From Candidatus Latescibacterota bacterium (GTDB lineage: Bacteria; Latescibacterota; UBA2968), in assembly GCA_965205975.1 (NCBI GenBank), contig OZ242195.1, positions 3,360,001 to 3,424,000 of the forward strand: a stretch of DNA of 64,000 nucleotides. Direction: 5' to 3'. Shown here one piece after another: positions 2,018-20,862 of the stretch; position 1 is the stretch's first letter, and each line of letters opens with the position of its first letter. A program made the position numbers and the translations under genes. The notes under the pieces were generated by a model. It searched no databases. It was not told where the DNA came from and saw only the letters and a program-made list of their open reading frames with translations.

Positions 2018-4324
2018 ATGGCGATGAAAAAAGAAGACTATTTGGGAATTGAAAATTACAAAGTAGTGGGCACGCGACCAATAAGGCATGATGGAACCGA
2101 TAAAGTGACGGGTCGCGCGGTGTATGGACCAGACTTTCACTTGACCGGATCGCTATACGGCAAAACACTGCGAAGCCCTCATGGGCATGCGTGGATCAAA
2201 TCCATCGACACCAGCAAAGCCGAAGCACTGCCCGGGGTAAAAGCCATAGTACTGGGAAAAGACCTCGTTCAAAATTACGAAGACAAAGTCTCCGATCTCG
2301 GTGAAGGATCCGTCGATCTGCGATTTTTAATCGCCAATGTACTCGCCGGAGACAAAGTCCTCTACGACGGACACGCCGTAGCAGCCATAGCAGCCACCTC
2401 TGCACACATCGCGGAAGAGGCATTAAACCTGATCGATGTAGAATACGAAATACTCGAACCCGTGCTCGAAGTCCGCCGCGCAATGGAAGACGACGCACCG
2501 CTATTGCACGACGACCTTAAAATGAAATCCCTCGGCGAAGAAACGGACCGGGCGAGCAACATCGCAAACCACTTCCAGCACAAACAGGGAGATATAGAAA
2601 AGGGATTTGAAGAAGCCGACGTAGTCATAGAGCGAGAATTTGCGACCGGAACAGTACACCAGGGATACATCGAACCACACAACGTAACCGCGCACTGGAG
2701 CGAAAACGGAAAGCTCACAATATGGTGCAGCACGCAGGGCCCATTTGAAGTCCGCGGCCAGGTCGCCGACGTACTCGGCCTCGAAGTGGGTGACATACGC
2801 GTCATCCCACAGGAAATTGGAGGCGGATTTGGCGGAAAATTCCGCGTCTATGAAGAACCGACCGCCGCCCTGCTGGCGCAAAAAACCGGAAAACCCGTAA
2901 AAATGGTCATGTCCCGCACAGAAGTATTAAAAGCCACCGGTCCAACGCCAGCATCCTACATCAAAGTCAAAATGGGCGCGACGCGGGACGGCAGGCTAAC
3001 GGCGGCACAAGCCTACATGGCATACGAAGCCGGAGCCTATCCCGGCTCTGCCGTAGGCGCTGGTGCGGGATGTATTTTCTCGCCCTACAGCATCCCGAAC
3101 TCCCTCATTGACGGCTACGATGTCGTCGTAAACAAACCCCAATCTTCCGCTTACCGCGCACCCGGCGCGACCAACGCGGCATTTGCATCTGAAACAGTAA
3201 TAGACGAAATATGCGAACAGATCGGAATCGACCCGCTCGAATTTCGATTAAAAAACGCGTCCAAAGAAGGCACGCGACGGGCAGATGGACCAGTCTTCTT
3301 GCGCATCGGTCAGGAAGAAGTCGTCAAAGCGGCCATGGCGCATCCACACTACCGCGCCCCCCTTGAAGGACCGAATCGGGGACGCGGCGTCGCCGCTGGA
3401 TTCTGGTTCAACGGCGGAGGCACATCAACAGTAGTCGCCAGTGTGAACCCGGACGGCACAGTAGCACTCGTCGAAGGCTCGCCCGATATTGGAGGCACGC
3501 GCACCTCAGTCGCCATACAATTTGCCGAAGTCCTGAATCTTCCCATCGAAGACATCAAACCAAATGTCACGGACACCGACGCAATCGGACAAACCGATGG
3601 AACGGGCGGAAGCCGCGTGACATTCGCAACCGGCTGGGCGAGCTATGAAGCCGCTCAAGATGTCAAGCACCAGATGATAGAACGAGCGGCGACATTATGG
3701 GAAATATCAAAAGACGACATCGTCTTTGAAGACGGAACCTTCCGCTCCAAATCAGACGCATCCAAATCCATCACATTCAAAGAACTCGCCGGCAGAGTCA
3801 ATCGCGCGGGTGGTCCGGTCGTAGGACGCGCTGCCGTAAGCGGCAAGCAGGCCGGCCCGGCATTCGCCCTCTTAATCGTAGATGTCGAAGTAGATCCAGA
3901 CACGGGCAAAGTGGATATCTTGCGGGCGACCATTGTACAGGACGCGGGCAAAGCCATTTATCCCGGCTATGTAGAAGGGCAGATGCAGGGCGGCGTGGTA
4001 CAGGGAATCGGATGGGCATTGAACGAGGAATTCGTGTACAATGACCAGGGCGTAATGGTCAACGCCTCTTTCCTCGATTATCGGATGCCCACAACACTCG
4101 ACCTCCCCATGATAGAAACCGTCATCGTAGAAGTCCCCAACCCAGGGCATCCTTATGGCGTGCGCGGCGTGGGCGAAGTGCCCATTGTCCCGCCGCCAGC
4201 CGCAGTCGCCAATGCGATTTACCGCGCTGTTGGCATACGGCTAAACGAGTTACCCATGTCGCCATCGCGAGTCCTGAAAGCACTGTGGGAAGCGGATGGC
4301 AGCCATGGTCAGGCAGCGGATTAA
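2018..4324 (+). CDS. Xanthine dehydrogenase/aldehyde oxidase family molybdopterin-binding (large) subunit
   Basis: Motifs KVTGRAVY, LRSPHGHA, GGGFGGK, AYRAPG, GQMQGGVVQGIG, GVRGVGE (catalytic Glu). Confidence 0.92.
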   Translation: MAMKKEDYLGIENYKVVGTRPIRHDGTDKVTGRAVYGPDFHLTGSLYGKTLRSPHGHAWIKSIDTSKAEALPGVKAIVLGKDLVQNYEDKVSDLGEGSVDLRFLIANVLAGDKVLYDGHAVAAIAATSAHIAEEALNLIDVEYEILEPVLEVRRAMEDDAPLLHDDLKMKSLGEETDRASNIANHFQHKQGDIEKGFEEADVVIEREFATGTVHQGYIEPHNVTAHWSENGKLTIWCSTQGPFEVRGQVADVLGLEVGDIRVIPQEIGGGFGGKFRVYEEPTAALLAQKTGKPVKMVMSRTEVLKATGPTPASYIKVKMGATRDGRLTAAQAYMAYEAGAYPGSAVGAGAGCIFSPYSIPNSLIDGYDVVVNKPQSSAYRAPGATNAAFASETVIDEICEQIGIDPLEFRLKNASKEGTRRADGPVFLRIGQEEVVKAAMAHPHYRAPLEGPNRGRGVAAGFWFNGGGTSTVVASVNPDGTVALVEGSPDIGGTRTSVAIQFAEVLNLPIEDIKPNVTDTDAIGQTDGTGGSRVTFATGWASYEAAQDVKHQMIERAATLWEISKDDIVFEDGTFRSKSDASKSITFKELAGRVNRAGGPVVGRAAVSGKQAGPAFALLIVDVEVDPDTGKVDILRATIVQDAGKAIYPGYVEGQMQGGVVQGIGWALNEEFVYNDQGVMVNASFLDYRMPTTLDLPMIETVIVEVPNPGHPYGVRGVGEVPIVPPPAAVANAIYRAVGIRLNELPMSPSRVLKALWEADGSHGQAAD

Positions 4325-4341
4325 TCAGATAGGAAAACACA

Positions 4342-4716
4342 ATGGACTGGTTCTCTCAATACGGTTTTCTCGGTGCCCTGCTCCTCTCGGGCATCGTTCT
4401 CGGTGCAATTCCCGTCGTCCTGCCCCTGATCATATCCCCTCGCACGCGCGGCCGCAAAAGCCGCGAGACCTACGAATGCGGCATGGACACAATTGGCAGT
4501 GCCTGGGTGCGCTTCGACATCGCCTATTATCTCTTTGCACTCATCTTTGTCGCGTTTGAAGTCGATGTACTGTATATTCTTCCCATCGCCGTAATCTACG
4601 ATTCGGGCACCTACGTCTGGCGCGACTTCATCGAACTCACAATCTTCATCGGCATTCTTTTTCTCGCCATCATCTACGCCTGGAGCAAAGGCGTTTTGCA
4701 CTGGAGAAGTCGATAA
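4342..4716 (+). CDS. nuoA: NADH-quinone oxidoreductase subunit A
   Basis: 3 TM segments; YECG loop; [20 protein letters not shown]. Confidence 0.93.
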
Positions 4717-5249
4717 TGGCACAAATAGAACTCCCCCTCGTGAAAAGCGATCCCAAAGACATTGAAGAACTGCGCGAAGAGGTCGGTCCCCTGGTACACA
4801 TGGACCTGCTGGAAAACCTGCTCAATCACGCCCGGTCTCGATCCCTGTGGCCCCTCACATTCGGCCTGGCGTGTTGCGCTATCGAAATGATGGCTGCAGG
4901 TGCAGCGCGCTTTGACCTCGACCGCATTGGCGCAGGCGTCTTTCGCCCCAGCGCGAGACAAGCCGATGTCATGATTCTCGCAGGCACAATCTCCCGCAAA
5001 ATGGCGACACCCATCAAAACGCTCTGGGACCAGATGCCCTCGCCAAAATGGGCCATAGCCATGGGTGGCTGCACCATCGATGGCGGTCCCTTCAAATATC
5101 CCGGACAATATGCCATTGTCGAAGGCGCAGACAAAATTGTACCCGTTGATGTGTACGTACCGGGTTGCCCCCCGCGCCCCGAAGCGCTCTTTGCCGCACT
5201 GTTCAAACTCGAAGAAAAAATCCGAGCCGGAAAGAAATTCAAGAAATGA
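4716..5249 (+). CDS. nuoB: NADH-quinone oxidoreductase subunit B
   Basis: [36 protein letters not shown] (N2 cluster ligands). Confidence 0.95.
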
Positions 5250-5704
5250 TCGCCGACAAACTCTCTTCGCTCGTGCTCGACGCAACCGAGGTTCAATACG
5301 ACGCACATGGCTTTCATGTACAACACACCACTTCAGCCGACACGCTCCCTCAGATTGCAGATGTCTTCCTATCCGAAAATTTTCACCTCGAAATGATAAC
5401 CTGTCAGGACCGACGCGAAAACGACAACACTTTTCGTCTGATTTACCAGTTTAACCAATACGGCACGCCCCAACGGCATATCATCCACGCCGACATAGCC
5501 CCCGATGCAGCCGCACCCAGTATTGCCACAATCTTTCCCGCTGCCGACTGGTACGAACGCGAAATTTTCGACATGTATGGCGTCACCTTTGACGGACATC
5601 CCGACTTAAAACGCATCTTAATGGAAGAAGATTATTTTGGTCATCCCCTGCTCAAAGACTTCGTCGATCCCCCCAATCCCTATCGCAGTGAGGACGACGC
5701 GTAA
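5246..5704 (+). CDS. nuoC: NADH-quinone oxidoreductase subunit C
   Basis: [26 protein letters not shown]...[11 protein letters not shown] at 5246 overlaps the nuoB stop (ATGA). Confidence 0.92.
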
Positions 5705-5710
5705 GGCTTT

Positions 5711-5730
5711 ATCCGCAGATGGACGCAGAT
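5711..5730. repeat. CATCTGCGNN decamer repeat (reverse orientation)
   Basis: ATCCGCAGATGGACGCAGAT is the reverse complement of ATCTGCGTCCATCTGCGGAT. Related copies at 19666-19683, 33334-33354, 44367-44387 and 49279-49309. Confidence 0.7.
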
Positions 5731-5773
5731 AAAATCAAAGTATTCGCAAATACACGCGGATGAAAGGTGCTTA

Positions 5774-6904
5774 ATGAACAGCCGATATGAGGTCGAACAA
5801 GATCCGAAAAGTCGAGACACCTATTATCTCAATATGGGGCCTCAGCACCCCTCTACACACGGCGTCATGCGCATCAAACTGCACCTGGATGGCGAACGGA
5901 TAATTTCAGCAGAACCCATCATTGGGTATGGGCATCGTGCACACGAAAAAATGGCCGAAAACCGCGACTACATCCAGTTCTTGCCCAATCCCAGTCGCGT
6001 AGATTACCTCGGCGGCATGATCTACAACATAGGCTATTGTCAAGCCGTAGAACGCGCGATGGACATCGAGGTCCCAGAACGCGCCGAATACATCCGCATC
6101 ATCTGCAATGAACTCAACCGCATCTCCAGCCACCTGCTCTGGCTGGGCACCTTTTTGATGGACCTGGGCGCATTTACCCCATTTCTCTACGCCTTTGACG
6201 ACCGCGAAAAAATCCTCGACATCCTCGACCGCATCACCGGGTCGCGCCTCACCTATTGTTACGCGCGATTTGGCGGCGTAATTCTCGACATCGACGATGT
6301 ATTCCTCGATAATGTCTCCAACTTTTGCACCTACTTTGTAGAGCGATTAAAAGAATACGAAAAACTCGTCATCGGCAACGTCATCTTCCGCGAACGCACC
6401 ATTGGCGTGGGTATCTTCGCACCCGACCTCGCTCAAAAATACGCCATAACAGGTCCCTGTCTGCGCGCCATGGGCCATGAACACGATGTCCGAAGAGACG
6501 AACCCTATGGCATCTACGACCGCTTTGAATTTGACGTACCCACACAAACAGAAGGCGACTGCTTTGCCCGCACACTCGTTCGCGTGGAAGAAATGCGCCA
6601 GAGCATTCGCATCATCGAACAAGCCGTAAGCGACCTGCCCGATGGTCTCTTTATCGCAGCCCGGGTGCCCAGACGCATCCGCCCGCCCGAAGGCGACTAT
6701 TATTTCTGTGTTGAATCGCCCCGAGGCAACTTCGGCATGTACATCGCAAGTGACGGCAGCGACATCCCCTTTCGCCTCAAATTGCGAACCCCATCGTTTT
6801 CACACATCTCGACCATGCCCGCCGTCATGGCCGGCACCATGCTCGCCGATGCTGTAGCTATTTTAGGCAGCATCGACATCGTCGTTCCCGAAATAGACAG
6901 ATAA
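5774..6904 (+). CDS. nuoD: NADH-quinone oxidoreductase subunit D
   Basis: LNMGPQHPSTHGVMR, RVDYL, ELNRISSHL, ESPRG, C-terminal DIVVPEIDR. No NiFe CxxC pairs. Confidence 0.95.
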   Translation: MNSRYEVEQDPKSRDTYYLNMGPQHPSTHGVMRIKLHLDGERIISAEPIIGYGHRAHEKMAENRDYIQFLPNPSRVDYLGGMIYNIGYCQAVERAMDIEVPERAEYIRIICNELNRISSHLLWLGTFLMDLGAFTPFLYAFDDREKILDILDRITGSRLTYCYARFGGVILDIDDVFLDNVSNFCTYFVERLKEYEKLVIGNVIFRERTIGVGIFAPDLAQKYAITGPCLRAMGHEHDVRRDEPYGIYDRFEFDVPTQTEGDCFARTLVRVEEMRQSIRIIEQAVSDLPDGLFIAARVPRRIRPPEGDYYFCVESPRGNFGMYIASDGSDIPFRLKLRTPSFSHISTMPAVMAGTMLADAVAILGSIDIVVPEIDR

Positions 6905-6913
6905 CGCACAACT

Positions 6914-7888
6914 ATGAAAACAGACGTCATCCAACTCTTTGAAAACCCCTATCTCGCACTCGGTGTGACCATCGCCGTCATCATGGCCTATTTGAGCGTC
7001 AACGCCATCATGTTGATCTGGCTCGAACGCAAACTCAGCGCGCGCATACAGCGCCGCATTGGCCCGCAACGCGGACCCTTTGGCTTGATGCAGCAAATTT
7101 TTGACATGGGCAAATTGCTCAGCAAAGAACTCCTCACACCCGAACACGCCAACAAACTGCTCTATGTCATCGCGCCCATCCTGGTCTTTGCGCCCGTCGT
7201 CGCCCTCTCGTCTCTCTTTCCCATAACGAGCACCTACATATTCCACGACTTCAACATCGCCATTGTCCTGATCCTCGCCATCAGCGGCATCAACGTAATC
7301 GGCATATTCTTAGCTGGCTGGGGATCCAATAACAAATACGCCCTGCTCGGCGCAGTGCGCTCGGTCGCGCAAAATATCTCCTACGAAATCCCCCTCATCC
7401 TATCGGTCATCCCCATAGTCATGATAACCCGCACCATGTCGCTCTACGACATCACCCTTGCACAGGAAACCTATCCCTTTATACTGGTGCAACCCATTGC
7501 CCTGATTATCTTTATCATATCAGCCACAGCCGAAACCAACCGCGCGCCCTTCGACATCCCCGAAGCGGAGTCCGAACTCGTCGCCGGATTCCACACCGAA
7601 TATTCCGGCATGCGCTTCGGACTGTTCTTCTTTGCCGAATACTCCAACATGATCTTTGCCTGCGCACTGGCAACCGTGCTCTTCCTGGGAGGATGGCGTG
7701 GACCTTTCCTGCCAGACGCCGTATGGTTCTTCATCAAAGTCTATGCACTCATCGTCCTCATGATGTGGTTCCGCTGGACTTTTCCGCGGCTTCGTTTTGA
7801 CCAACTCATGAAATTCGCCTGGGTGGTACTCGTCCCTCTCTCGCTGATCAACCTGCTAATCACAACACTGGTCTTGAAAATCGTTTAG
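6914..7888 (+). CDS. nuoH: NADH-quinone oxidoreductase subunit H
   Basis: ERKLSARIQRRIGP, SNNKYALLGA, AETNRAPFDIPEAESELVAGFHTEYSG, PRLRFDQLM. Confidence 0.95.
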   Translation: MKTDVIQLFENPYLALGVTIAVIMAYLSVNAIMLIWLERKLSARIQRRIGPQRGPFGLMQQIFDMGKLLSKELLTPEHANKLLYVIAPILVFAPVVALSSLFPITSTYIFHDFNIAIVLILAISGINVIGIFLAGWGSNNKYALLGAVRSVAQNISYEIPLILSVIPIVMITRTMSLYDITLAQETYPFILVQPIALIIFIISATAETNRAPFDIPEAESELVAGFHTEYSGMRFGLFFFAEYSNMIFACALATVLFLGGWRGPFLPDAVWFFIKVYALIVLMMWFRWTFPRLRFDQLMKFAWVVLVPLSLINLLITTLVLKIV

Positions 7889-7907
7889 AACTTTCAAGGA
7901 AAATCCC

Positions 7908-8447
7908 ATGGCACTCCTCAAAGAAATCCTCGACGGCACCAAAACGCTCCTGACCGGCCTGAAAGTCACACTGGACAACTTCCGCAAACCGCCTGTCACC
8001 TCGCAATATCCAATGGAAAAAATCGAGATGTCGGAAGCGTTTCGCAATGTCATTGTCCTCATCGAAAAAGAAGACATCGGCTCGCACGACTGCATCGACT
8101 GCAAACTCTGTGAGCGCGTGTGTCCCTCCTTCTGCATTTACCTCGACGGGGAACGCCCCGAAGGGTTAAGGCGCAAACGCTCGACCAAATTTGAAGTTGA
8201 TTTCGCCCTGTGCAGCGACTGCGGACTGTGCTTAGACGTATGCCCCACAAACACCCTGGGATACAGCAAAGTCCACGACGAAGCCGGATACAATCGCAGC
8301 GACTTTCTCTACGACTTACTCGAACCCTGGGCAGACAAAGAAGAAGCCGCGCGCGAACGCCTGAAAGAAATCGAAGCCGAACAAGCCGCAGAACGCGCCA
8401 GAAAAGCCGCAGCCAAAAAAGCGAAAAAGGTAAGACGGGAGAAGTAA
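7908..8447 (+). CDS. nuoI: NADH-quinone oxidoreductase subunit I (2x[4Fe-4S])
   Basis: VTSQYP, CIDCKLCERVCP, CSDCGLCLDVCP; Lys/Ala-rich C-terminal extension. Confidence 0.92.
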   Translation: MALLKEILDGTKTLLTGLKVTLDNFRKPPVTSQYPMEKIEMSEAFRNVIVLIEKEDIGSHDCIDCKLCERVCPSFCIYLDGERPEGLRRKRSTKFEVDFALCSDCGLCLDVCPTNTLGYSKVHDEAGYNRSDFLYDLLEPWADKEEAARERLKEIEAEQAAERARKAAAKKAKKVRREK

Positions 8448-8460
8448 ACGGAGAACAACA

Positions 8461-8973
8461 ATGCTCGAACAGGCTGTCATTTACACATTTGTAGCCCTCG
8501 TCCTCATCGGTGGGGGCCTGGCTGCATTCTCTCGCCAGATACTCTACGCCATCATCGGCCTGGGTATCAGTCTCCTGGGGCTGGCGGGGCTATTTCTCAA
8601 CCTCGGCAGTCCATTTGTCGCGGCAATGCAGGTACTCATCTATATTGGCGGCATAACCGTTGCCATTGTATTTGCCATGATGCTCTCGATTGCCATGTCT
8701 ATACGCCCGCCCGATCCCGACGCCCGAAAACTCGGCTTTGCCATCGCCTGTGCCGTTATCTTTTTTGGCGCAGTCGCCCATTTGATCCGCGGCGCGCAAT
8801 TCCAACAAATCGCGTCCCCAGCATCTGAAAAAGCCTGGTCTGTGGGCGCGTTGGGCCATGCATTGCTCACGCATTACAATCTCGTCTTTGAAACCCTCTC
8901 TCTCGTTTTGCTCCTGGCCATCATCGGTGCCATCTTGATAGCTCGCAAGGCTTTGCCAAAGGAAAATTCGTGA
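8461..8973 (+). CDS. nuoJ: NADH-quinone oxidoreductase subunit J
   Basis: FVAAMQVLIYIGGI, FETLSLVLLLAIIGAI; operon position. Confidence 0.92.
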   Translation: MLEQAVIYTFVALVLIGGGLAAFSRQILYAIIGLGISLLGLAGLFLNLGSPFVAAMQVLIYIGGITVAIVFAMMLSIAMSIRPPDPDARKLGFAIACAVIFFGAVAHLIRGAQFQQIASPASEKAWSVGALGHALLTHYNLVFETLSLVLLLAIIGAILIARKALPKENS

Positions 8974-9275
8974 CCCTCGATTCTTATCTCCTCGTGGGCG
9001 CTGCCCTGTTTTCACTCGGTTTGATCGGCGCACTATCCCACCGCAACCTCATAGCCCTGCTCATCGGCATCGAACTCATGATGAATGCCGCCAGCTTAAA
9101 CCTGATGGCCTTTAACCGGTTTGTCGTCACCGATCCGACGACCGGCCAGATCTTCGTCCTCATCATCATTGGGCTGGCAGCCGCCGAAGTCGCTATCTTT
9201 TTATCAATCATCCTGCGCATCTATCGGGCATACCACGATATTGATGCGGAAAAACTCACCAAACTGAGCGGTTGA
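8970..9275 (+). CDS. nuoK: NADH-quinone oxidoreductase subunit K
   Basis: GIELMMNAA, GQIFVLII, LAAAEVAI. Confidence 0.93.
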   Translation: MTLDSYLLVGAALFSLGLIGALSHRNLIALLIGIELMMNAASLNLMAFNRFVVTDPTTGQIFVLIIIGLAAAEVAIFLSIILRIYRAYHDIDAEKLTKLSG

Positions 9276-11098
9276 TGGACACTCTCTCACTCATACTCTT
9301 AACGACAATCTCCCCCCTGGCGTGTTTTATCATCGCCATCATCTTTCTCATACAACAACCCAGAGCCGCTCAGGGATTGGTCCTGTTCGGCAGCGCGATA
9401 TCCCTTTTGAGCGCCATCGGCCTTCTCTTACAAGGACCCGTTGAACCCCTGCGGTTTTTGTGGTTTCAAAGCGGTGCAATACAACTCCAATTTGGCTTCA
9501 TCCTCGATGGGCCAAGCCTCATGTTTGGCGTTGTCGTCGCCTTCATCACCGCCTGCATCATGCTCTATTCAATCGGCTACATGGCGCACGACCCGGGCAA
9601 AACGCGCTATTTCGCAATGCTCAGTTTCTTTGCCTGGTCCATGCTCAGCTTTGTCTATGCCGTCGATCTCTTGCAGTCTTTCATCTTTTGGGAACTCGTC
9701 GGCCTGTCTTCTTTCTTCCTCATCGGTTTCTGGTTTGAAAAACCCGAAGCGGCAGGCGCAGCGCGCAAAGCTTTTCTCATGACCCGCGTGGGCGATGTCG
9801 GCCTCTTCATCGGCATTTTGCTCATCCTCCAACTCGTTCACAGCTTCGATATTCCCAGTCTCTTAGACCCTCAAACGGGCCTCTCTACACAAGTATCACC
9901 CGGCATACTCAACGCAATCACACTACTCATCTTTATTGGCATCATGGGCAAAAGCGCGCAATTCCCATTGCACACCTGGCTACCCGACGCGATGGAAGGC
10001 CCCACCCCGATCAGCGCCCTGTTGCACTCTGCCACCATGGTCGCCGCAGGCGTCTTTCTCATGATCCGCCTGCACCCGCTCTTTATAGCGGCGCAAGACA
10101 CAGCACTCATCGTCCTGGGCATTGCCACCTTCACCGCAATCCTCGCATCAACCATCGCAATGGTCGATACCGACATCAAAAAAGTACTCGCCTATTCGTC
10201 CATCAGCCAACTCGGCTTCATGCTCATGGCACTCGCTGCCGGCAGCCTCTTCGCCGGTGTATTTCACCTGATCACCCACGCCGTTTTCAAAGCCCTGCTC
10301 TTCCTCTGCTCGGGCATTTATATTCACGCCTATCACACCAACAGCATGGCCGAAATTGGTCGTAGTGGAGGCCGCCGTCTCAAAGCCACAACTTTTGGCC
10401 TCATCATCGGTGGCGCTGCCCTATCGGGCGTTCCCCCACTGGCGGGATTCTGGAGCAAAGAAGAAATTTTTGCCCAACTCGGTCACAATGGCTTCAACAT
10501 CTACATGGCCGGTGCATTTCTCGCGGCCTTTCTCACGGCCTATTACACATTCCGCATGATTTTCCTCATCACAAAACCCGACCAGGCACCTGCCACCGAC
10601 CACAGCCATCCCGAACCCCTGAACATGAAAGCCCCCGTCTTAATCCTCACTCTGGGCGCAATCGTACTCGGCTTCTTTGGCTCCAACATCGCCGAGGGCC
10701 TCGGTCTCATACCACAGCACCACAGCGTCATATTGATGATCCCCACCGTAGGCGTCGTCATCCTCGGCATCCTGATCGCCTATCTCGACTATGGACGCGA
10801 CAACGCGCCGCGCACGGGATTCATCAGCAAAATCGCACCCCTCAATACCCTGTTCACAAACAAATGGTACATCGACGAAGTCTATCGCGTCACCATCGTC
10901 GCCATCACCCACGCACTATCTCGCATCTTGCACTGGATAGAAGACCACGTCCTCGACGGAAATTACGACCGCTTTGGCCTCGGCATCTTGCGCACGGGCG
11001 CAAAATCAACCCGCGTACAGGGCGGCTGGATGCAACTCTATCTGGGCTGGGCGATCATCTTATTAGCCGTAGTCGCGCTTTACCTCGGATTGCGATAA
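9275..11098 (+). CDS. nuoL: NADH-quinone oxidoreductase subunit L
   Basis: WELVGLSSFFLIGFW, KSAQFPLHTWLPDAMEGPTPISALLHSATMV, THAVFKALLFL. ATG overlaps the nuoK stop (TGATG). Confidence 0.94.
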   Translation: MDTLSLILLTTISPLACFIIAIIFLIQQPRAAQGLVLFGSAISLLSAIGLLLQGPVEPLRFLWFQSGAIQLQFGFILDGPSLMFGVVVAFITACIMLYSIGYMAHDPGKTRYFAMLSFFAWSMLSFVYAVDLLQSFIFWELVGLSSFFLIGFWFEKPEAAGAARKAFLMTRVGDVGLFIGILLILQLVHSFDIPSLLDPQTGLSTQVSPGILNAITLLIFIGIMGKSAQFPLHTWLPDAMEGPTPISALLHSATMVAAGVFLMIRLHPLFIAAQDTALIVLGIATFTAILASTIAMVDTDIKKVLAYSSISQLGFMLMALAAGSLFAGVFHLITHAVFKALLFLCSGIYIHAYHTNSMAEIGRSGGRRLKATTFGLIIGGAALSGVPPLAGFWSKEEIFAQLGHNGFNIYMAGAFLAAFLTAYYTFRMIFLITKPDQAPATDHSHPEPLNMKAPVLILTLGAIVLGFFGSNIAEGLGLIPQHHSVILMIPTVGVVILGILIAYLDYGRDNAPRTGFISKIAPLNTLFTNKWYIDEVYRVTIVAITHALSRILHWIEDHVLDGNYDRFGLGILRTGAKSTRVQGGWMQLYLGWAIILLAVVALYLGLR

Positions 11099-11101
11099 AA
11101 T

Positions 11102-12577
11102 ATGCCACTTCTCTCATCCATACTTCTCACCCCCGTCATCACCCTCATCATCCTTTTGCTCATGCCCCAAAGGGCTGTGCGGGGTATCCGGCTAATATGC
11201 GCCCTCAGCGGTCTTTTGACCTGTGTGCTGAGTCTGCAACTCTGGACGAGCTATGATCCCACAACCAGCGGTATTCAATTTGAAGAACTGATCCCCTGGG
11301 TCGCAGCCATTGGCATCTCCTATCACCTCGGCGTTGACGGATTTGGCGTTATCCTCGTCATGCTCAATTCCATCGTCTATTTCACCGGGGTACTCACCAT
11401 GTGGGACCTCGAAGAGCGCGTCAAAGAATATTTCGCCTTCATGGTACTCCTCGTCATCGGCGTCTTCGGCGTCTTCATGTCGCTGGACCTCTTCTTCTTC
11501 TTCTTCTTTTACGAAATCGCCGTCGTGCCCATGTACCCCCTCATCCTGATATGGGGCAGCGGCAACAGAGCTTATGCCGGGATGAAACTCATGCTCTTCC
11601 TCCTCGCCGGCAGCGCGCTCCTCTTTCCCGGTCTTCTCGCCATCTATCACCACGCGGGCCTCAACACCTTTGATATCATTGCCCTGTCTGCACACACATT
11701 CGACCCCCAATTCCAAATATTTGTCTATCCCTTCATCTACATTGGCTTTGGCGTCCTGGCCGGCCTCTTCCCCTTCCACGGCTGGTCGCCCACAGGCCAC
11801 GTTGCTGCGCCATCTGCGGTTTCCATGCTACACGCGGGCGTCCTGATGAAACTCGGCGCTTATGGCATACTCACAGTCGGCATTCGCCTGCTACCCGAAG
11901 GCGCTGCATACTGGGCGCCGACCTTTGTGGTATTGGCAGTCATAGGAATCATCTACGGAGCTTATGTCGCCATGCGGCAGACCGACTTCAAATTTGTCAT
12001 CGGCTTTTCATCTGTATCTCATATGGGCATCGTCCTCCTCGGCCTCAATCTCGCGGTCCTTGGCTCAGTCGTAGCTACCGACGCCCTCAACGGCGCTGTT
12101 TTCCAGATGTTTGCCCACGGCATCATGACCGCCCTGTTTTTCAGCACCGCGGGATATATCTACGACAAATCCCACTCAAAAACCATTACCGACTTTGGCG
12201 GCCTTGGCGCGCAGATGCCCCGCGCAGTCTCCATCTTCATCGTCGCGGGCCTGTGTGGTGCCGGGCTACCCGGCCTGGCGAGCTTTTGGGCTGAATTACT
12301 CGTATTCTTCGCCGCCTTAAAAACGTACCCCATCGCCGGCGTCATCGTCATCCTGGGCCTCTTACTCACCGCAGTTTACATCTTGCGCGTCTTCAACCTG
12401 GCCTTTTTTGGCGCACCAAATCCGAAATGGAAAAATCTGAAAGCACAGGATATGTCTGGCCTGCACCTGATACCGCGCGCCATACTAATCGCCGTACTCG
12501 TGATCTTCGGCTTTGTACCCCGCCTCATGCTCGACCTGATCAACAGCACGACAATGGCTTTCTTGGGTAATTTCTAA
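11102..12577 (+). CDS. nuoM: NADH-quinone oxidoreductase subunit M
   Basis: LGVDG, FFFYEIAVVPMY, PFHGWSPTGHVAAP, LMKLGAYG, SSVSHMG. Confidence 0.93.
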   Translation: MPLLSSILLTPVITLIILLLMPQRAVRGIRLICALSGLLTCVLSLQLWTSYDPTTSGIQFEELIPWVAAIGISYHLGVDGFGVILVMLNSIVYFTGVLTMWDLEERVKEYFAFMVLLVIGVFGVFMSLDLFFFFFFYEIAVVPMYPLILIWGSGNRAYAGMKLMLFLLAGSALLFPGLLAIYHHAGLNTFDIIALSAHTFDPQFQIFVYPFIYIGFGVLAGLFPFHGWSPTGHVAAPSAVSMLHAGVLMKLGAYGILTVGIRLLPEGAAYWAPTFVVLAVIGIIYGAYVAMRQTDFKFVIGFSSVSHMGIVLLGLNLAVLGSVVATDALNGAVFQMFAHGIMTALFFSTAGYIYDKSHSKTITDFGGLGAQMPRAVSIFIVAGLCGAGLPGLASFWAELLVFFAALKTYPIAGVIVILGLLLTAVYILRVFNLAFFGAPNPKWKNLKAQDMSGLHLIPRAILIAVLVIFGFVPRLMLDLINSTTMAFLGNF

Positions 12578-12578
12578 C

Positions 12579-14003
12579 ATGGAAAACGCTATACTCTTCG
12601 CACCAGAACTTATTTGCCTGCTCATGGGCCTCGTGCTCTTCTTCTGCACAGTCCTCAACTGGTCCTATCGCACCACCCGGGGCATTGCCATAGCATCCGG
12701 TATAGCCATGATCGCCGCCTGTCTCTGGACCCTATCCCTTGAAGGCGAACCCTTCTTCCCAGGCATATACGCGGTTGACTTCTTTTCTCAACTGATCAAA
12801 ACAGCACTCGCCGTCGGATTCTTATTTGTCGTCATAGCCAGTGCCACCCCCCTCACAGTTGACCGCAATGGTTGGCTCGAGGTCCCCCTCTTTTTCATCT
12901 TTTCCACACTCGGCATGATGATGATGGTAAGCGCGACCGAACTCCTCACCCTCTATGTCGCCATGGAACTGGCAGCCTACCCCGTCTATATCGTCGTTGC
13001 CCTTCACCGCAATGCGGACATCGGCGGGGAAAGCGCCGCCAAATACATGGTACAGGGCATGGCAGCCTCGGCCATCTCGCTCTACGGCATGAGCTTCCTC
13101 TTTGGCACATTTGGCTCCACCTACTTCTCTGCCATCAGCATCCCACACGCCGCCGCGCACCCCATCTTCTACCTGGGTCTATTGCTCACACTCGCTGGCT
13201 TCTTCTTCAAACTCGGCGCATTCCCCTTCCATTTTTGGGCACCCGACACGTATGAAACCGCGCCCCATCCAGTGATCACATTCATCGCCACCGTTTCCAA
13301 AATCGCCGCCATAGGCATCCTCTGCCGCCTGTTATCCCTGGCCATGCCCGGTGGCTGGGAATCGGGACACGCCCAAACCGCGCTCATGTGGGCAAGCGTC
13401 ATCGCAATGAGCCTGGGCAACCTATCGGCACTCGCGCAAAAAGACCTCAAACGCCTGCTCGGATACTCCACAGTCGCCCACGCCGGTTACGTGCTCCTCG
13501 CCCTGCAAACCTTCGCCGAATGGGGTCTTACCGCTGCCCTCTTTTACGCCATTGGCTACTTTGCCATGTCCTTTGCATGCTTCCTCGTCATCTGCGAAAT
13601 TGGTCGCAGCGAAGACCGCATCACCATCGACTCCGTATCTGGCCTTTACAAACGCGCGCCATTCCTCTCCTTCACCTTGCTCATCGGCCTGTTTGGCCTC
13701 ATTGGCCTCCCCCCCACTGTGGGCTTTGTCGGCAAATGGTTCCTCTTTTCTGCCGCCCTCCAGCGCGGTCAATTCTATCTCGTCCTAATCGCAGCCATCA
13801 ACGCCGCAATCGCCCTGTATTATTATCTCCTCATCATCCGCCAACTCTACTGGGTAGAACCCACCACACAGAACACCATCAAACCCACGCCCCTCATCGC
13901 CGTCACCGCAATGGCGACCATCATCCTCGTAATCGCAATGGGCACGCTCCCCGGTCCCTTCTGGGACATGGCTGCACGCGCCGCACGCGCACTGATCAGT
14001 TGA
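12579..14003 (+). CDS. nuoN: NADH-quinone oxidoreductase subunit N
   Basis: ESAAKY, FKLGAFPFHFWAPDTYE, LKRLLGYSTVAHAGY, GLPPTVGFVGKW. Confidence 0.94.
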   Translation: MENAILFAPELICLLMGLVLFFCTVLNWSYRTTRGIAIASGIAMIAACLWTLSLEGEPFFPGIYAVDFFSQLIKTALAVGFLFVVIASATPLTVDRNGWLEVPLFFIFSTLGMMMMVSATELLTLYVAMELAAYPVYIVVALHRNADIGGESAAKYMVQGMAASAISLYGMSFLFGTFGSTYFSAISIPHAAAHPIFYLGLLLTLAGFFFKLGAFPFHFWAPDTYETAPHPVITFIATVSKIAAIGILCRLLSLAMPGGWESGHAQTALMWASVIAMSLGNLSALAQKDLKRLLGYSTVAHAGYVLLALQTFAEWGLTAALFYAIGYFAMSFACFLVICEIGRSEDRITIDSVSGLYKRAPFLSFTLLIGLFGLIGLPPTVGFVGKWFLFSAALQRGQFYLVLIAAINAAIALYYYLLIIRQLYWVEPTTQNTIKPTPLIAVTAMATIILVIAMGTLPGPFWDMAARAARALIS

Positions 14004-15198: not shown

Positions 15199-16125
15199 AT
15201 GCTCGGTAAATTAATCGACAAATTAAAAAAGGGACTGACCAAAACCCGCGAAGGCATGGTACAAAAAATCCGCGAAGTCATTCGGCGTCGTCCTGAAATC
15301 GACGAAGAAACCCTTGAAGAAATTGAAGAAATCCTCATCGAAGCCGACGTTGGCGTAGAACCCACCCTTCGCATAATTGACCAATTGCGCGAACGTTTTG
15401 AAACCGGCGAACCCGTTGAAAACCCGGAAACCGCAATCCAGGAATTTCTCGAAGAAGAAATCCGCAAAATCCTCCTGCCTTCAGATACTGCGCCATCTAT
15501 CGCAATCACAACCAAACCCCACATCATCCTCGTCGTAGGCGTCAACGGCGTGGGCAAAACCACCACCATTGGCAAAATGGCTCACAAACTCAGCCGCGAA
15601 GGCAAAAAAGTACTCTTTGCGGCAGGAGACACATTTCGGGCAGCTGCCATTGACCAACTCGGCATCTGGGCCGACCGCACGGGATCTGACATCGTGCAAC
15701 ACCAACCGGGTGCAGACGCAGCCTCCGTGGCATTCGACGCCATTCAGGCAGCCAGAGCACGTGACATCGACGTCGTAATCATCGACACAGCGGGCCGCCT
15801 GCACACCAAAATCAACCTCATGGAAGAAGTAAAAAAAATCCGCCGCGTCGTCGCCAAAGCCATGCCCGGTGCCCCCCACGAAACCCTGCTCGTACTCGAC
15901 GCCACCACAGGACAAAACGCCGTCATACAGGCAAAACAATTTCACAGCACAGTCGAACTCACGGGCCTTGTCCTGGCAAAACTCGACGGCACTGCCAAAG
16001 GAGGCGTAATCATCGCCATTGCCGACGAACTCGACCTGCCCGTGCGCTATGTTGGCCTGGGAGAAGGCATTGAGGACCTGGACGACTTTGACCCCGAAAC
16101 CTTTGTTAGAGCTTTATTCGAGTAA
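15199..16125 (+). CDS. ftsY: Signal recognition particle receptor FtsY
   Basis: [36 protein letters not shown]. Confidence 0.97.
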
Positions 16126-16159
16126 TTGACGCCAATGCGAAATCGAGTATATTTTTTTT

Positions 16160-17320
16160 ATGCCTACCCAACTGCCCATATATCTCGACAACAACGCCAC
16201 CACACCCATAGATGAACGGGTGCTCAACGCGATGTTGCCCTATCTCAAAGACCGCTTTGGCAATGCCGCCAGCCGTACACACACCTTTGGGTGGCATGCC
16301 GAAGATGCTGTTGATCTGGCGCGGGAACAAATAGCCAGCCTCATCAACGCACAGCCCAAAGACATCGTCTTTACCAGCGGCGCCACAGAATCCGATAACC
16401 TCGCCATCAAAGGCGTGGTAGCCGCAGCCAAAACCCCGCACATCATCACGCAAGCCACCGAACACCACGCCGTACTCGACTCTTGCCGCGCCCTGGAACG
16501 CAATGGTGTCTCGGTCACAGTCCTGCCCGTAGATTCACACGGCATTGCCGACCCATCAGACATCGCAAACGCCATCACAGACAAAACCGCACTCGTCTCC
16601 ATCATGGCGGCCAACAACGAAATCGGCACCTGCCAGGCAATTGAAGAAATCGGGGCGATATGCCGTGAAAAAAACATCTATTTTCACACAGATGCAGCAC
16701 AGGCCATTGGCAAATACCCGCTCGACGTCGAAGCCATGCACATCGACCTGCTCTCCATCTCTGCCCACAAATTCTACGGTCCCAAAGGCGCAGGCGCGCT
16801 CTATGTGCGCAGTCGCCCGCGCGTTCGCCTCATCGGACAAATAGACGGCGGGGGACATGAAAAAGGCATGCGCTCTGGCACCCTCAATGTACCGGGCATT
16901 GTGGGCATGGGGGAAGCCTGTGCGCTCGCACAAAAACACATCAAAACCGAAGCAAAACACAGCCAGAATTTGCGCCATCGCCTGCAAAACCACCTCTTCA
17001 ACGCGCTGCCCCAAATACAACTCAACGGCCACCCCGAACAACGCCTGCCGGGCAACCTCAACATCAGCTTTTCTGGTGTGGATGGCGAAAGCCTGCTCAT
17101 GAGCTTGCAAGACATAGCTCTCTCATCCGGTTCGGCGTGTACATCCGCATCTCTCGAACCGTCTTATGTACTCAAAGCCATTGGCGTCAGCAATGACATG
17201 GCGCAGTGCAGCATACGCTTTGGCATTGGCCGATTCAACACCGAAGAAGAAATTGACTATGTTGCAGAGCGCGTAATTCAAGAAGTCAATCGCCTTCGCG
17301 AAATCTCGCCAAACTATTAA
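16160..17320 (+). CDS. iscS: Cysteine desulfurase, IscS subfamily
   Basis: YLDNNATTP, FTSGATE, HTDAAQ, SAHKFYGPKG (PLP Lys), SSGSACTS. Confidence 0.95.
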   Translation: MPTQLPIYLDNNATTPIDERVLNAMLPYLKDRFGNAASRTHTFGWHAEDAVDLAREQIASLINAQPKDIVFTSGATESDNLAIKGVVAAAKTPHIITQATEHHAVLDSCRALERNGVSVTVLPVDSHGIADPSDIANAITDKTALVSIMAANNEIGTCQAIEEIGAICREKNIYFHTDAAQAIGKYPLDVEAMHIDLLSISAHKFYGPKGAGALYVRSRPRVRLIGQIDGGGHEKGMRSGTLNVPGIVGMGEACALAQKHIKTEAKHSQNLRHRLQNHLFNALPQIQLNGHPEQRLPGNLNISFSGVDGESLLMSLQDIALSSGSACTSASLEPSYVLKAIGVSNDMAQCSIRFGIGRFNTEEEIDYVAERVIQEVNRLREISPNY

Positions 17321-17339
17321 ATTTATCCCCGGAGCCATC

Positions 17340-18149
17340 ATGCCAACCCCAGACCGCCCCCAACGCCCCGAAATCTTACCCGAAGTCAAAAACATCGTCG
17401 CAGTATCCAGCGGCAAAGGCGGCGTGGGCAAAACAACAGTTAGCGTAAACCTCGCGGTCTCACTCGCCAAACAGGGCGCGGCAGTTGGCTTGCTCGACGC
17501 GGATATTTACGGACCCAACGTGCCAATCATGATGGGCAGCACGGCGCAACCCAGGTCAATAGGCCAAAAAATACTACCCCTTGAAAATCACAATGTCAAA
17601 TTCATGTCTCTCGGCCTCATCGCCGGAGAAAATGCCCCCATTATATGGCGCGGTCCCATCGTGGGCAGAATGATTCAGCAATTCATGGTTGACGTAATAT
17701 GGGGCGCACTCGACTACCTCGTCGTCGATCTCCCCCCCGGCACGGGCGACGCACAACTCACCCTTGCCCAAACCGTGCCCCTCAGCGGTGCGGTCATCGT
17801 CACCACCCCGCAAAATGTCGCACTGGAAGACGTACATCGCGGCATCGAAATGTTCCGCAAAGTCGAAGTCCCCATCCTCGGCGTTGTCGAAAACATGAGC
17901 TATTTCCTGTGCCCGTGTTGCGGAGACCGCACCCCCCTCTTCGGCGAAGGCGGCGGTCAACACATCGCCGATGCTTTTGGCCTGCCCCTGCTCGGACAAA
18001 TCCCCATCCAGCCCAATATCCGCGAAGGCGGCGACACGGGTGCACCCATCGCAACAGGTGAAAACAATGCTTTCCCCGAAATCGCCCGACGCATTGCCGA
18101 CGCACTGGCAAAACGGGAAAGCGACCTGCCCGAAATCACAATTGTGTGA
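17340..18149 (+). CDS. apbC: Mrp/ApbC/NBP35 Fe-S cluster carrier ATPase
   Basis: SGKGGVGKTT, DADIYGP, WRGP, DLPPGTGD, VENMSYFLCPCC. Confidence 0.9.
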   Translation: MPTPDRPQRPEILPEVKNIVAVSSGKGGVGKTTVSVNLAVSLAKQGAAVGLLDADIYGPNVPIMMGSTAQPRSIGQKILPLENHNVKFMSLGLIAGENAPIIWRGPIVGRMIQQFMVDVIWGALDYLVVDLPPGTGDAQLTLAQTVPLSGAVIVTTPQNVALEDVHRGIEMFRKVEVPILGVVENMSYFLCPCCGDRTPLFGEGGGQHIADAFGLPLLGQIPIQPNIREGGDTGAPIATGENNAFPEIARRIADALAKRESDLPEITIV

Positions 18150-18233
18150 TTTTTCGGGCTTGCGGATGAAAAAAAATACCTTACATTAACCCTCGTTAAA
18201 AATGACCCAAAACACCAACCCGAAAGGCACGCC

Positions 18234-19403
18234 ATGAGTGCAACTTATGAAATGCTCGTCGGACAGGCAGAGGCCAGCACCACGGGACTCTCTCCAGAAC
18301 GCGCACAGGAGAAAATCCATGCAAATGGCACGCTGCTCATAGACGTGCGCGAGCGCGAAAATTATATCGAAGGATATATCCCCGGCGCAGAAAACGTGCC
18401 GCGTGGCTTTCTCGAACTCCGCATAGAAAGCATGGACAACGACCGCGACCGCGCAATCATTGTCTATGGTACACAGGGCCAGGGCGCATTGGCCGCACAG
18501 GCACTTCAAGACATGGGCTATTCCGATGTCGCGTATATCCAGGGCGACATCGATTCCTGGAAAAACGCCGGTCTCGCCATTGACCGTGACCGCGCGCTCG
18601 ACAAAGCCGAAGTACAGCGCTACTCCCGTCACCTCCTCATCCCCGAAGTGGGAGAACGCGGGCAGGGCAAACTCCTCGACGCCAAAGTTCTGCTCATCGG
18701 CGCAGGCGGATTGGGCAGCCCAACCGGACTCTATCTCGCCGCGACTGGCATAGGAACATTGGGAATTGTCGATGCCGACATCGTCGATGTCACCAACTTG
18801 CAACGCCAGATACTACACGGCACATCTGACCTGGGTCGTCTCAAAGCCATCTCGGCTTACGAAACCCTCAAAGAAATCAACCCCGGCTGCGATGTGGTGC
18901 CACACACCGATTATCTCACATCCGACAACATCATGGACATCCTCCCCGAATACGATATCATCGTCAACGGATGCGACAACTTCCCAACGCGCTACCTGGT
19001 CAACGATGCGTGTGTCTTCACAAAAAAACCCATCGTGGATGGCAGCATCTTCCGCTTTGAAGGTCAGGTCACAGTGTACACATGCGATGGCGAGGGACCT
19101 TGCTACCGCTGCCTCTACCCCGCGCCACCGCCAGCAGACCTGGCACCATCGTGAGACGAAGCAGGCGTGCTGGGTGTATTGCCCGGCACAGTTGGCCTCG
19201 TGCAGGCCACAGAAGTTGTCAAACTCATACTCGGTCAGGGGGATCCACTCATCGGTCGCTTGCTGATGTACGACGCCCTGCAAATGAACTTCAACACATT
19301 CAAAATTCGCCGCGACAAAAATTGCCCTGTATGCGGCGACAACCCGACCATCACCGAACTCATGGACTATCAGGCATTCTGCGCCATGGATCACAGCGAA
19401 TAG
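18234..19403 (+). CDS. moeB: Rhodanese-MoeB (E1-like adenylyltransferase), predicted selenoprotein of 389 aa with UGA at codon 307 (19152-19154)
   Basis: RYSRH, IGAGGLGSP, NLQRQ, DNFPTRY and CYRC precede the UGA. In the same frame after it come DEAGVLGVLPG...QATE...CPVCG. The UGA sits at the Cys of the PSC(x)EAGVLG motif. Confidence 0.85.
19163..19198 (+). promoter_or_regulatory. Candidate bacterial SECIS element
   Basis: 9-bp stem GTGCTGGGT (19167-75)/GCCCGGCAC (19181-89) with two G-U pairs. The loop GUAUU starts 21 nt after the UGA. Lower stem AGGC/GCCT. Confidence 0.65.
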
Positions 19404-19460
19404 ACGAATAGACGAATAGACGAATAGACGAATAGACGAATCAACGAATCAACGAATAGA
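19397..19460 (+). repeat. Octamer tandem repeat, CGAATAGA/CGAATCAA x8
   Basis: 5x CGAATAGA, 2x CGAATCAA, 1x CGAATAGA. The first unit contains the moeB stop codon. Confidence 0.95.
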
Positions 19461-19501
19461 CGGAATTATGTGCAACTGGCCGCTTATCAGGTCAGTTCAT
19501 C
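19451..19501 (+). repeat. 51-bp hairpin-containing repeat, copy 1
   Basis: 42/51 identical without gaps to 39791-39841. Stem AACTGGCC/GGTCAGTT. Confidence 0.8.
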
Positions 19502-19519: not shown

Positions 19520-19559
19520 AAAGGGGTGAAACCACCAATCGGTTTCACCCCTTTTATTT
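19520..19559 (+). terminator. Intrinsic terminator of the ftsY-iscS-apbC-moeB cluster
   Basis: AAAGGGGTGAAACC/GGTTTCACCCCTTT followed by TATTT. Confidence 0.8.
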
Positions 19560-20763: not shown

Positions 20764-20862
20764 CGAATCAACGAATCAACGAATCCCGCCCATCCCCAAA
20801 AACAGTGTGTATTGCCATTCGTCTATTCGTCTATTCGTCTATTCGTCTATTCGTCTATTCGT
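20764..20862. repeat. Inverted pair of octamer tandem arrays
   Basis: CGAATCAA x~2.7 (20764-20785), CCCGCCC spacer, then ATTCGTCT x5+ (20817-20862). Confidence 0.9.

Follow-up and report, generated by a model that had tools for sequence, protein, structure and literature searches.

The gene at positions 18234-19403 (forward strand) of the window, the 64,000-nucleotide stretch of a Candidatus Latescibacterota genome analysed here, encodes a MoeB/MoeZ-type enzyme in which the UGA at codon 307 is almost certainly decoded as selenocysteine (Sec). All of the Gly-Gly carrier proteins of the cell probably receive sulfur, rather than selenium, from this enzyme. This selenoprotein is a lineage-specific variant of a family that has been known since 2005 and is predicted only. 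Distinctive here are the dead rhodanese domain, a likely separate gain of Sec, a hairpin in another register, a sole E1 enzyme facing four carriers, and the adjoining iscS.

The open reading frames at 18234-19154 and 19167-19403 are, as originally predicted, one reading frame. Translation of the whole gives 389 codons with a single internal stop, a TGA at 19152-19154 (codon 307) in the context LAPS*DEAGVLGVLPG. The read-through protein is assigned to the rhodanese-MoeB (PRK08762 family) E1-like adenylyltransferases by a structure model and by the NF006444/PRK08762 profile, which matches residues 8-385 with 513.9 bits (curated cut-off 449). An N-terminal rhodanese-fold domain (18291-18569) is followed by a ThiF/MoeB adenylation domain (18621-19331, with RYSRH from 18618) that includes the motifs GAGGLG and NLQRQ. 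Membership in the MoeB/ThiF E1 enzymes is indicated by the profile score above cut-off, the nucleotide-binding GxGGLG and two CxxC zinc half-sites. The half-sites CYRC (aa 290-293, 19101-19112) and CPVC (aa 364-367, 19323-19334) sit on either side of the TGA, as had been claimed, and the second is made on read-through only. C290 and C293 are invariant in 90 alignment rows, which were picked for having the CYRC motif. The structure model has a pLDDT of 91.6 when built from 90 sequences and 46.6 when built from 13. It includes a flexible loop (301-320), and a helix (315-333) and strands (342-357) lie past the UGA. Termination at the UGA is thus predicted from the model to cost the protein a core helix and two strands, along with half of the zinc site. 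Sponge RNA contigs from three runs in two studies span the gene across the UGA, one of them covering 15706-19410; as contigs cannot prove a single transcript, they are not counted as evidence here. A promoter scan of the region returned consensus matches only.

The capacity to insert Sec is encoded in the same genome (5.56 Mb, single contig, 98% complete). Genes for selA, selB and selD score above curated cut-offs and a tRNA-Sec(TCA) is present; the absence of selABCD from a complete genome was what the original prediction had named as evidence against it. The selD gene has an in-frame TGA of its own (GGUASK), with the tRNA-Sec directly downstream; the two lie at contig positions 3425281-3426406, 1.3-2.4 kb beyond the window end. 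Also present outside the window (3054928-3055752) is a two-domain sulfurtransferase with a TGA at its catalytic position (PYUQGGYRS), a member of a known predicted selenoprotein family. TGA is the commonest ordinary stop in the genome (1253 of 3036 long frames), so there is no code reassignment and the standard code applies.

Orthologues were found in 40 of 41 genomes searched. Codon 307 is TGA in 21 of these (this genome, all 19 matching congeners of the 20 searched, and one genome of a sister genus) and TGC in the remaining 19, all from the same order. Three genomes of a second sister genus also have TGA, for a total of 24 genomes in three genera. Twenty further loci from the phylum comprise three with TGA and 17 with TGC or TGT. 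A wider search covered 121 phylum genomes and gave a match in 99; TGA occurred in 23, all within one family. In 95 of the 121, among them almost every Cys-form genome of the class, selA was identified. The alignment thus yields the Cys/TGA pairs that were sought, and the relatives do not all have TGC or TGT. Sequencing error is excluded, since 19 assemblies made independently all show this TGA. The proposed selection test shows that constraint continues beyond the UGA, with a dN/dS of 0.057 past it vs 0.045 before it (19 non-independent pairs). Loci with 92-96% protein identity are titled Candidatus Latescibacterota, two cluster members are labelled Gemmatimonadota, and several sequencing runs containing the stretch are sponge metagenomes.

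The reading of the TGA as a true stop, in a split gene, a pseudogene or an erroneous sequence, with GTG 19167 starting a separate 78-aa product, is scarcely credible. Databases do list the two pieces as separate proteins, the stub being 306 aa long and the orphan 78 aa. Against this, the codon is never TAA or TAG in the 24 genomes and falls exactly at an invariant Cys, the four codons between UGA and GTG are conserved, the GTG begins at the first base of the hairpin stem discussed below, and the MoeB gene is the genome's sole E1. Together, the Sec machinery, TGA conservation, TGC orthologues and downstream constraint strongly support the selenoprotein call. Read-through at the protein level is very likely, a prediction that we draw from sequence comparison.

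Folding places a candidate SECIS hairpin at 19167-19189. Its 9-bp stem (GTGCTGGGT/GCCCGGCAC, two G-U pairs) and GUAUU loop, which begins 21 nt after the UGA, are present as described in the original prediction. The stability of the hairpin varies with the stretch folded (z of -3.14 for 19155-19200, 1/200 shuffles; -2.25 for 19152-19195) and is weaker in longer folds (-1.42 over 64 nt, -0.23 over 111 nt). All eight core pairs occur in 21/21 Sec forms vs 0/19 Cys forms of the same order, yet 17 of 116 more distant Cys forms have them as well. Among the 20 further phylum loci, 3 of 17 Cys forms have all eight pairs and the three Sec genomes keep seven. Compensatory change was found in none of the nine stem pairs (seven invariant, two changed on one side), and covariation in 13/20 genus sequences was uninformative. 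Of 115 Cys homologues that share the peptide, 72 (62%) have a stem of at least 6 bp, compared with 12% at other codons. The conserved peptide thus often encodes a hairpin in Cys forms too, so that the hairpin by itself says little; it is supporting, not decisive, for Sec.

Codon usage around the hairpin was compared across phyla. Codons +5 to +9 are far more constrained in 115 Sec forms (0.2-0.9 bits) than in 116 Cys forms that share the peptide (1.5-2.1 bits), in a set that omits 5 of the 120 listed loci (different peptide or short flank), comes mostly from other lineages and includes non-independent kin. Codons +2 to +4 are alike in the two forms. The register of the hairpin is shifted by one base relative to 95 of 112 other Sec-MoeB loci among the matches listed. 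The register of other phyla fits the codons of 9 of the 19 Cys forms of the order (one genus) vs 1 of 116 metagenome Cys forms. These Cys forms could carry a relic SECIS of older Sec use, or could reflect codon chance in one genus. A latent hairpin in the GVLGVLPG peptide would explain the repeated origin of Sec at this site, in two pairing registers.

The original prediction saw no other lesion in the gene, and in this it overlooked the N-terminal rhodanese domain, where sequence comparison reveals Gly in place of the catalytic Cys (IVYG79). All 45 order genomes, Sec and Cys forms alike, have YG for YC in a motif one residue shorter than YCxxGxRS, so that none has the MoeZ/Uba4-type fused rhodanese with a catalytic Cys. 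The YC is kept in 15/15 loci from outside the order. Rhodanese Cys are also found in most of the 73 other-lineage Sec-MoeB loci among the matches listed (N-terminal in 58, C-terminal in 11, neither in 4). The domain is still under purifying selection (dN/dS 0.127). Given that the fused rhodanese is unable to carry a persulfide, sulfur would have to come in trans.

A 55-row tree requires eight changes of the Sec/Cys label, at least four of which are forced by well-supported branches. Topology tests reject a single clade of all Sec forms (p-AU 5e-14) and also a grouping of this lineage with the Poribacteria/Rokubacteria group (p 0.006), in both cases from quick trees with a suboptimal free search. 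A tree of the order only leaves the direction of change undecided (p-AU 0.72; the quick free tree lies 13 log units below the constrained one). With class outgroups, the eight Sec rows group together (99/97) within a clade of 34 rows, of which the other 26 are Cys. Because the Sec clade is nested among Cys rows, one gain is the simplest reading. We infer that the rhodanese Cys was likely lost first and that Sec was then likely gained independently in this lineage.

A role for Sec307 as stand-in for the dead rhodanese, either accepting sulfur as a selenylsulfide from IscS or cleaving an acyl-disulfide as a resolving residue, would agree with this order of events. Precedents may be seen in the acyl-disulfide reported for ThiS-ThiF (PMC11662940) and the resolving role given to MOCS3 C239 (PMC5372717). 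However, 69 of the 73 other listed Sec-MoeBs keep a rhodanese Cys, and the 19 Cys-form members of the order cope with neither Sec nor a rhodanese Cys. Sec is thus not a required compensation, and we consider such a role unlikely.

The family itself has been described previously. As the original prediction stated, Sec-MoeB was predicted from marine metagenomes, with 11 sequences from the Sargasso Sea set (PMC1088965, 2005) and 19 from GOS (PMC2398784). In later compilations, molybdopterin biosynthesis MoeB stands under the 'Predicted' heading of a Table 1 (PMC9312934) and MoeB is included in a selenoprotein family table (PMC13188914). The Sec of the published family is likely at the same position as Sec307, and the supplements of these papers may hold members of this lineage. 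A literature search, with subscription journals mostly outside its scope, found no bench study of a Sec-MoeB. Our pattern scan of species genomes recovered at least 120 Sec-MoeB loci; those among the matches listed fall under at least 10 NCBI phylum labels, and 12 of them carry no label. The open frame around one listed Sec-MoeB is about 700 codons long, and this protein is possibly a fusion. The enzyme described here shares with the predicted family the MoeB/ThiF domain (COG0476, PF00899), a UGA paired with Cys, and a hairpin just downstream. It differs in its rhodanese without Cys, its register shifted by one base and its separate origin in the tree. From the rhodanese-MoeB of NF006444/PRK08762 it differs in having Sec for Cys at 307 and Gly for the rhodanese Cys.

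The best PDB matches are to Uba4/MOCS3 (6YUB, 6YUC, 6Z6S; E 3.5e-59), and residue 307 corresponds to Cys202 in the crossover loop of C. thermophilum Uba4. The residue aligns with the Cys of QTSCGEAG in Uba4 (QTSKGEAG in the C202K crystal form) and of LTCVEAG in E. coli MoeB, and the TGA is thus at the reactive-Cys position, which the original prediction had identified as the conserved Cys of the MoeB/ThiF loop. Differences from Uba4 lie in the rhodanese, C-terminal and active there but N-terminal and inactive here, and in the number of carriers, one or two for Uba4 and four in this genome. E. coli MoeB and ThiF (1JW9, 1ZFN) have the same adenylation domain and zinc site and no working rhodanese; in E. 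coli, however, the two are distinct enzymes that use Cys and lack any fused domain. E. coli MoeB reportedly tolerates loss of the loop Cys. Also shared with the E. coli system may be the supply of sulfur in trans by IscS (PMC5372717).

MoeB-family enzymes adenylate the C-terminal glycine of a carrier, and this would be the first step here. The selenolate of Sec307 would then attack the carrier-AMP to form a selenoester, as Uba4 Cys202 forms a thioester. By analogy with Uba4, selenoester formation by Sec307 is probable. A persulfide supplied in trans, most likely by the IscS encoded two genes upstream, would finally release the thiocarboxylated carrier; the Sec-sulfurtransferase of the genome or a TusA-like protein (a weak TusA match was found) are alternative donors. 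We judge this last step, with IscS as the most likely source, to be about an even call.

In Uba4, Cys202 is reported to form the carrier thioester (PMC7527816, PMC11662940) and also to guard against stray conjugation under oxidants (PMC7527816). Bacterial MoeB/MoaD is reported to work without a thioester (PMC6007339, PMC7527816), and MoaD and ThiS of bacteria are described as activated without one (PMC7527816, PMC11662940, PMC6007339). The account that reports the shielding role of Cys202 has bacterial carriers activated by adenylation only (PMC7527816). These descriptions would suit a mainly protective Sec307: the residue would withstand irreversible oxidation or quench carrier intermediates that are reactive, and neither adenylation nor sulfur transfer would need it. 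We regard this as rather improbable. The changes between Cys and Sec forced at this one position, at least four in number, are of a kind typical of catalytic residues, although they are compatible with protection too. The repeated exchange in these alignments argues for a catalytic role of the loop Cys, and selenoester formation remains our preferred reading.

The candidate sulfur donor in trans is an IscS-subfamily cysteine desulfurase (16160-17320, forward strand; PRK14012 above cut-off). Between iscS and moeB lies a gene for an ApbC/Mrp-like P-loop ATPase (17340-18149, forward strand) that scores below both NCBIfam cut-offs. The clustering with iscS and apbC that was originally noted is real and conserved: iscS is beside moeB in 18 of the 20 further phylum loci, and across the class, and an apbC gene precedes moeB in 39 of the 40 genomes from the order. 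Neither gene was found within 3 kb in the 73 other-lineage Sec-MoeB loci among the matches listed. Adjacency of iscS extends to another family with an intact rhodanese Cys; it thus predates loss of the Cys, and direct donation is not proved by it. The Sec-sulfurtransferase was considered as an obligate partner of Sec307 and rejected, as its TGA is present in 37 of the 40 genomes with a match, most Cys-MoeB genomes included, and the two are not coupled. Tandem repeats of 8 bp at 19397-19462 (CGAATAGA, 8.2 copies) and 20817-20862 (ATTCGTCT, 5.8 copies, the reverse-strand form) flank the dehydrogenase gene next to moeB. At 19520-19554, a 15-bp hairpin resembles a terminator between convergent genes. 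Elsewhere in the window (4716-14003) is a partial nuo-like operon (by appearance B, C, D, H, I, J, L, M and N), in which E, F and G are not visible.

A PF00899 (ThiF-family) profile search of the genome returned the MoeB gene as its single match, making it the sole E1-family gene. Across 21 genomes of the genus, ThiF-family matches number one in 12, include extra distant ones in 8, and are absent from 1. A PF02597 search identified four Gly-Gly carriers, which were named with the help of gene context, and moaC is also present. MoaD is encoded with moaE, ThiS between thiO and thiG, and a CysO-like carrier ending in GG-CSF in a cysM-mec(JAB)-cysO-rrf2-cysK cluster. The fourth, ending in IAGG, is encoded on the reverse strand just downstream of an xdh-type large-subunit gene. 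NCBIfam at 1e-12 gave no match for mec, thiG or the fourth carrier; these are named by Pfam, context and motifs. The CysO-like protein would need trimming by the JAB protease. In mycobacteria, one enzyme, MoeZR, is reported to serve both MoaD and CysO (PMC3227635), and a cysM-mec-cysO cluster is found here too; MoeZR differs in having a C-terminal rhodanese with Cys, and the carrier here in ending in GG-CSF. The MoeB of this genome likely serves the thiamine and cysteine carriers besides MoaD. Genes for thiG, cysO or mec lie within 3 kb of only 5 of 80 Sec-MoeB loci among the matches listed, so that no pathway is singled out.

The original prediction proposed a sulfur/selenium relay to molybdoenzymes such as the one encoded at 2018-4324, and this finds no support. 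Such a relay would make selenocarboxylated carriers, or provide a Se ligand for xanthine-dehydrogenase-type enzymes. The genome has five xdh-type large subunits, the fourth carrier gene adjoins one of them, and IscS-type enzymes can act on selenocysteine. However, neither yqeB nor selU was found in the 98%-complete single-contig genome. The 2018-4324 product, an xdh-type molybdenum-binding subunit with four paralogues (two of them 66-67% identical), falls below all NCBIfam cut-offs, scoring 310 bits against TIGR03311 (Se-dependent XDH), where the cut-off is 830. Neither mark of a Se-cofactor molybdenum hydroxylase system, yqeB alongside selD or a Se-dependent XDH, was thus found. The xdh-type gene is also missing from 6/6 long relative loci and so is no conserved neighbour, and Cys forms share the same operon. 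A selenium relay is accordingly very improbable, and 2018-4324 is a plausible client of MoeB through the ordinary molybdenum cofactor only.

Repair of the annotation joins a stub and an orphan into what is likely the genome's sole carrier-activating enzyme. As a stop at the UGA removes core elements of the protein, synthesis of the molybdenum cofactor and of thiazole would depend on selenium supply. A tentative scenario, possible but less probable as a whole than its parts, is that in a sponge-associated lineage the sole activator lost its rhodanese Cys and then exchanged its loop Cys for Sec. The result would be a selenoester-forming E1 fed by IscS, through which selenium would control the making of molybdenum cofactor, of thiamine and, by the carrier-dependent route, of cysteine; the latent hairpin would explain why Sec arose repeatedly. 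The findings bear on the open point of whether the loop Cys of bacterial MoeB/ThiF, the thioester site in Uba4, is catalytic. Sec and Cys orthologues in this lineage are 70% identical, share the same operon and both have the dead rhodanese. As no second active Cys is present in the rhodanese of either, the pair offers a clean test of residue 307.
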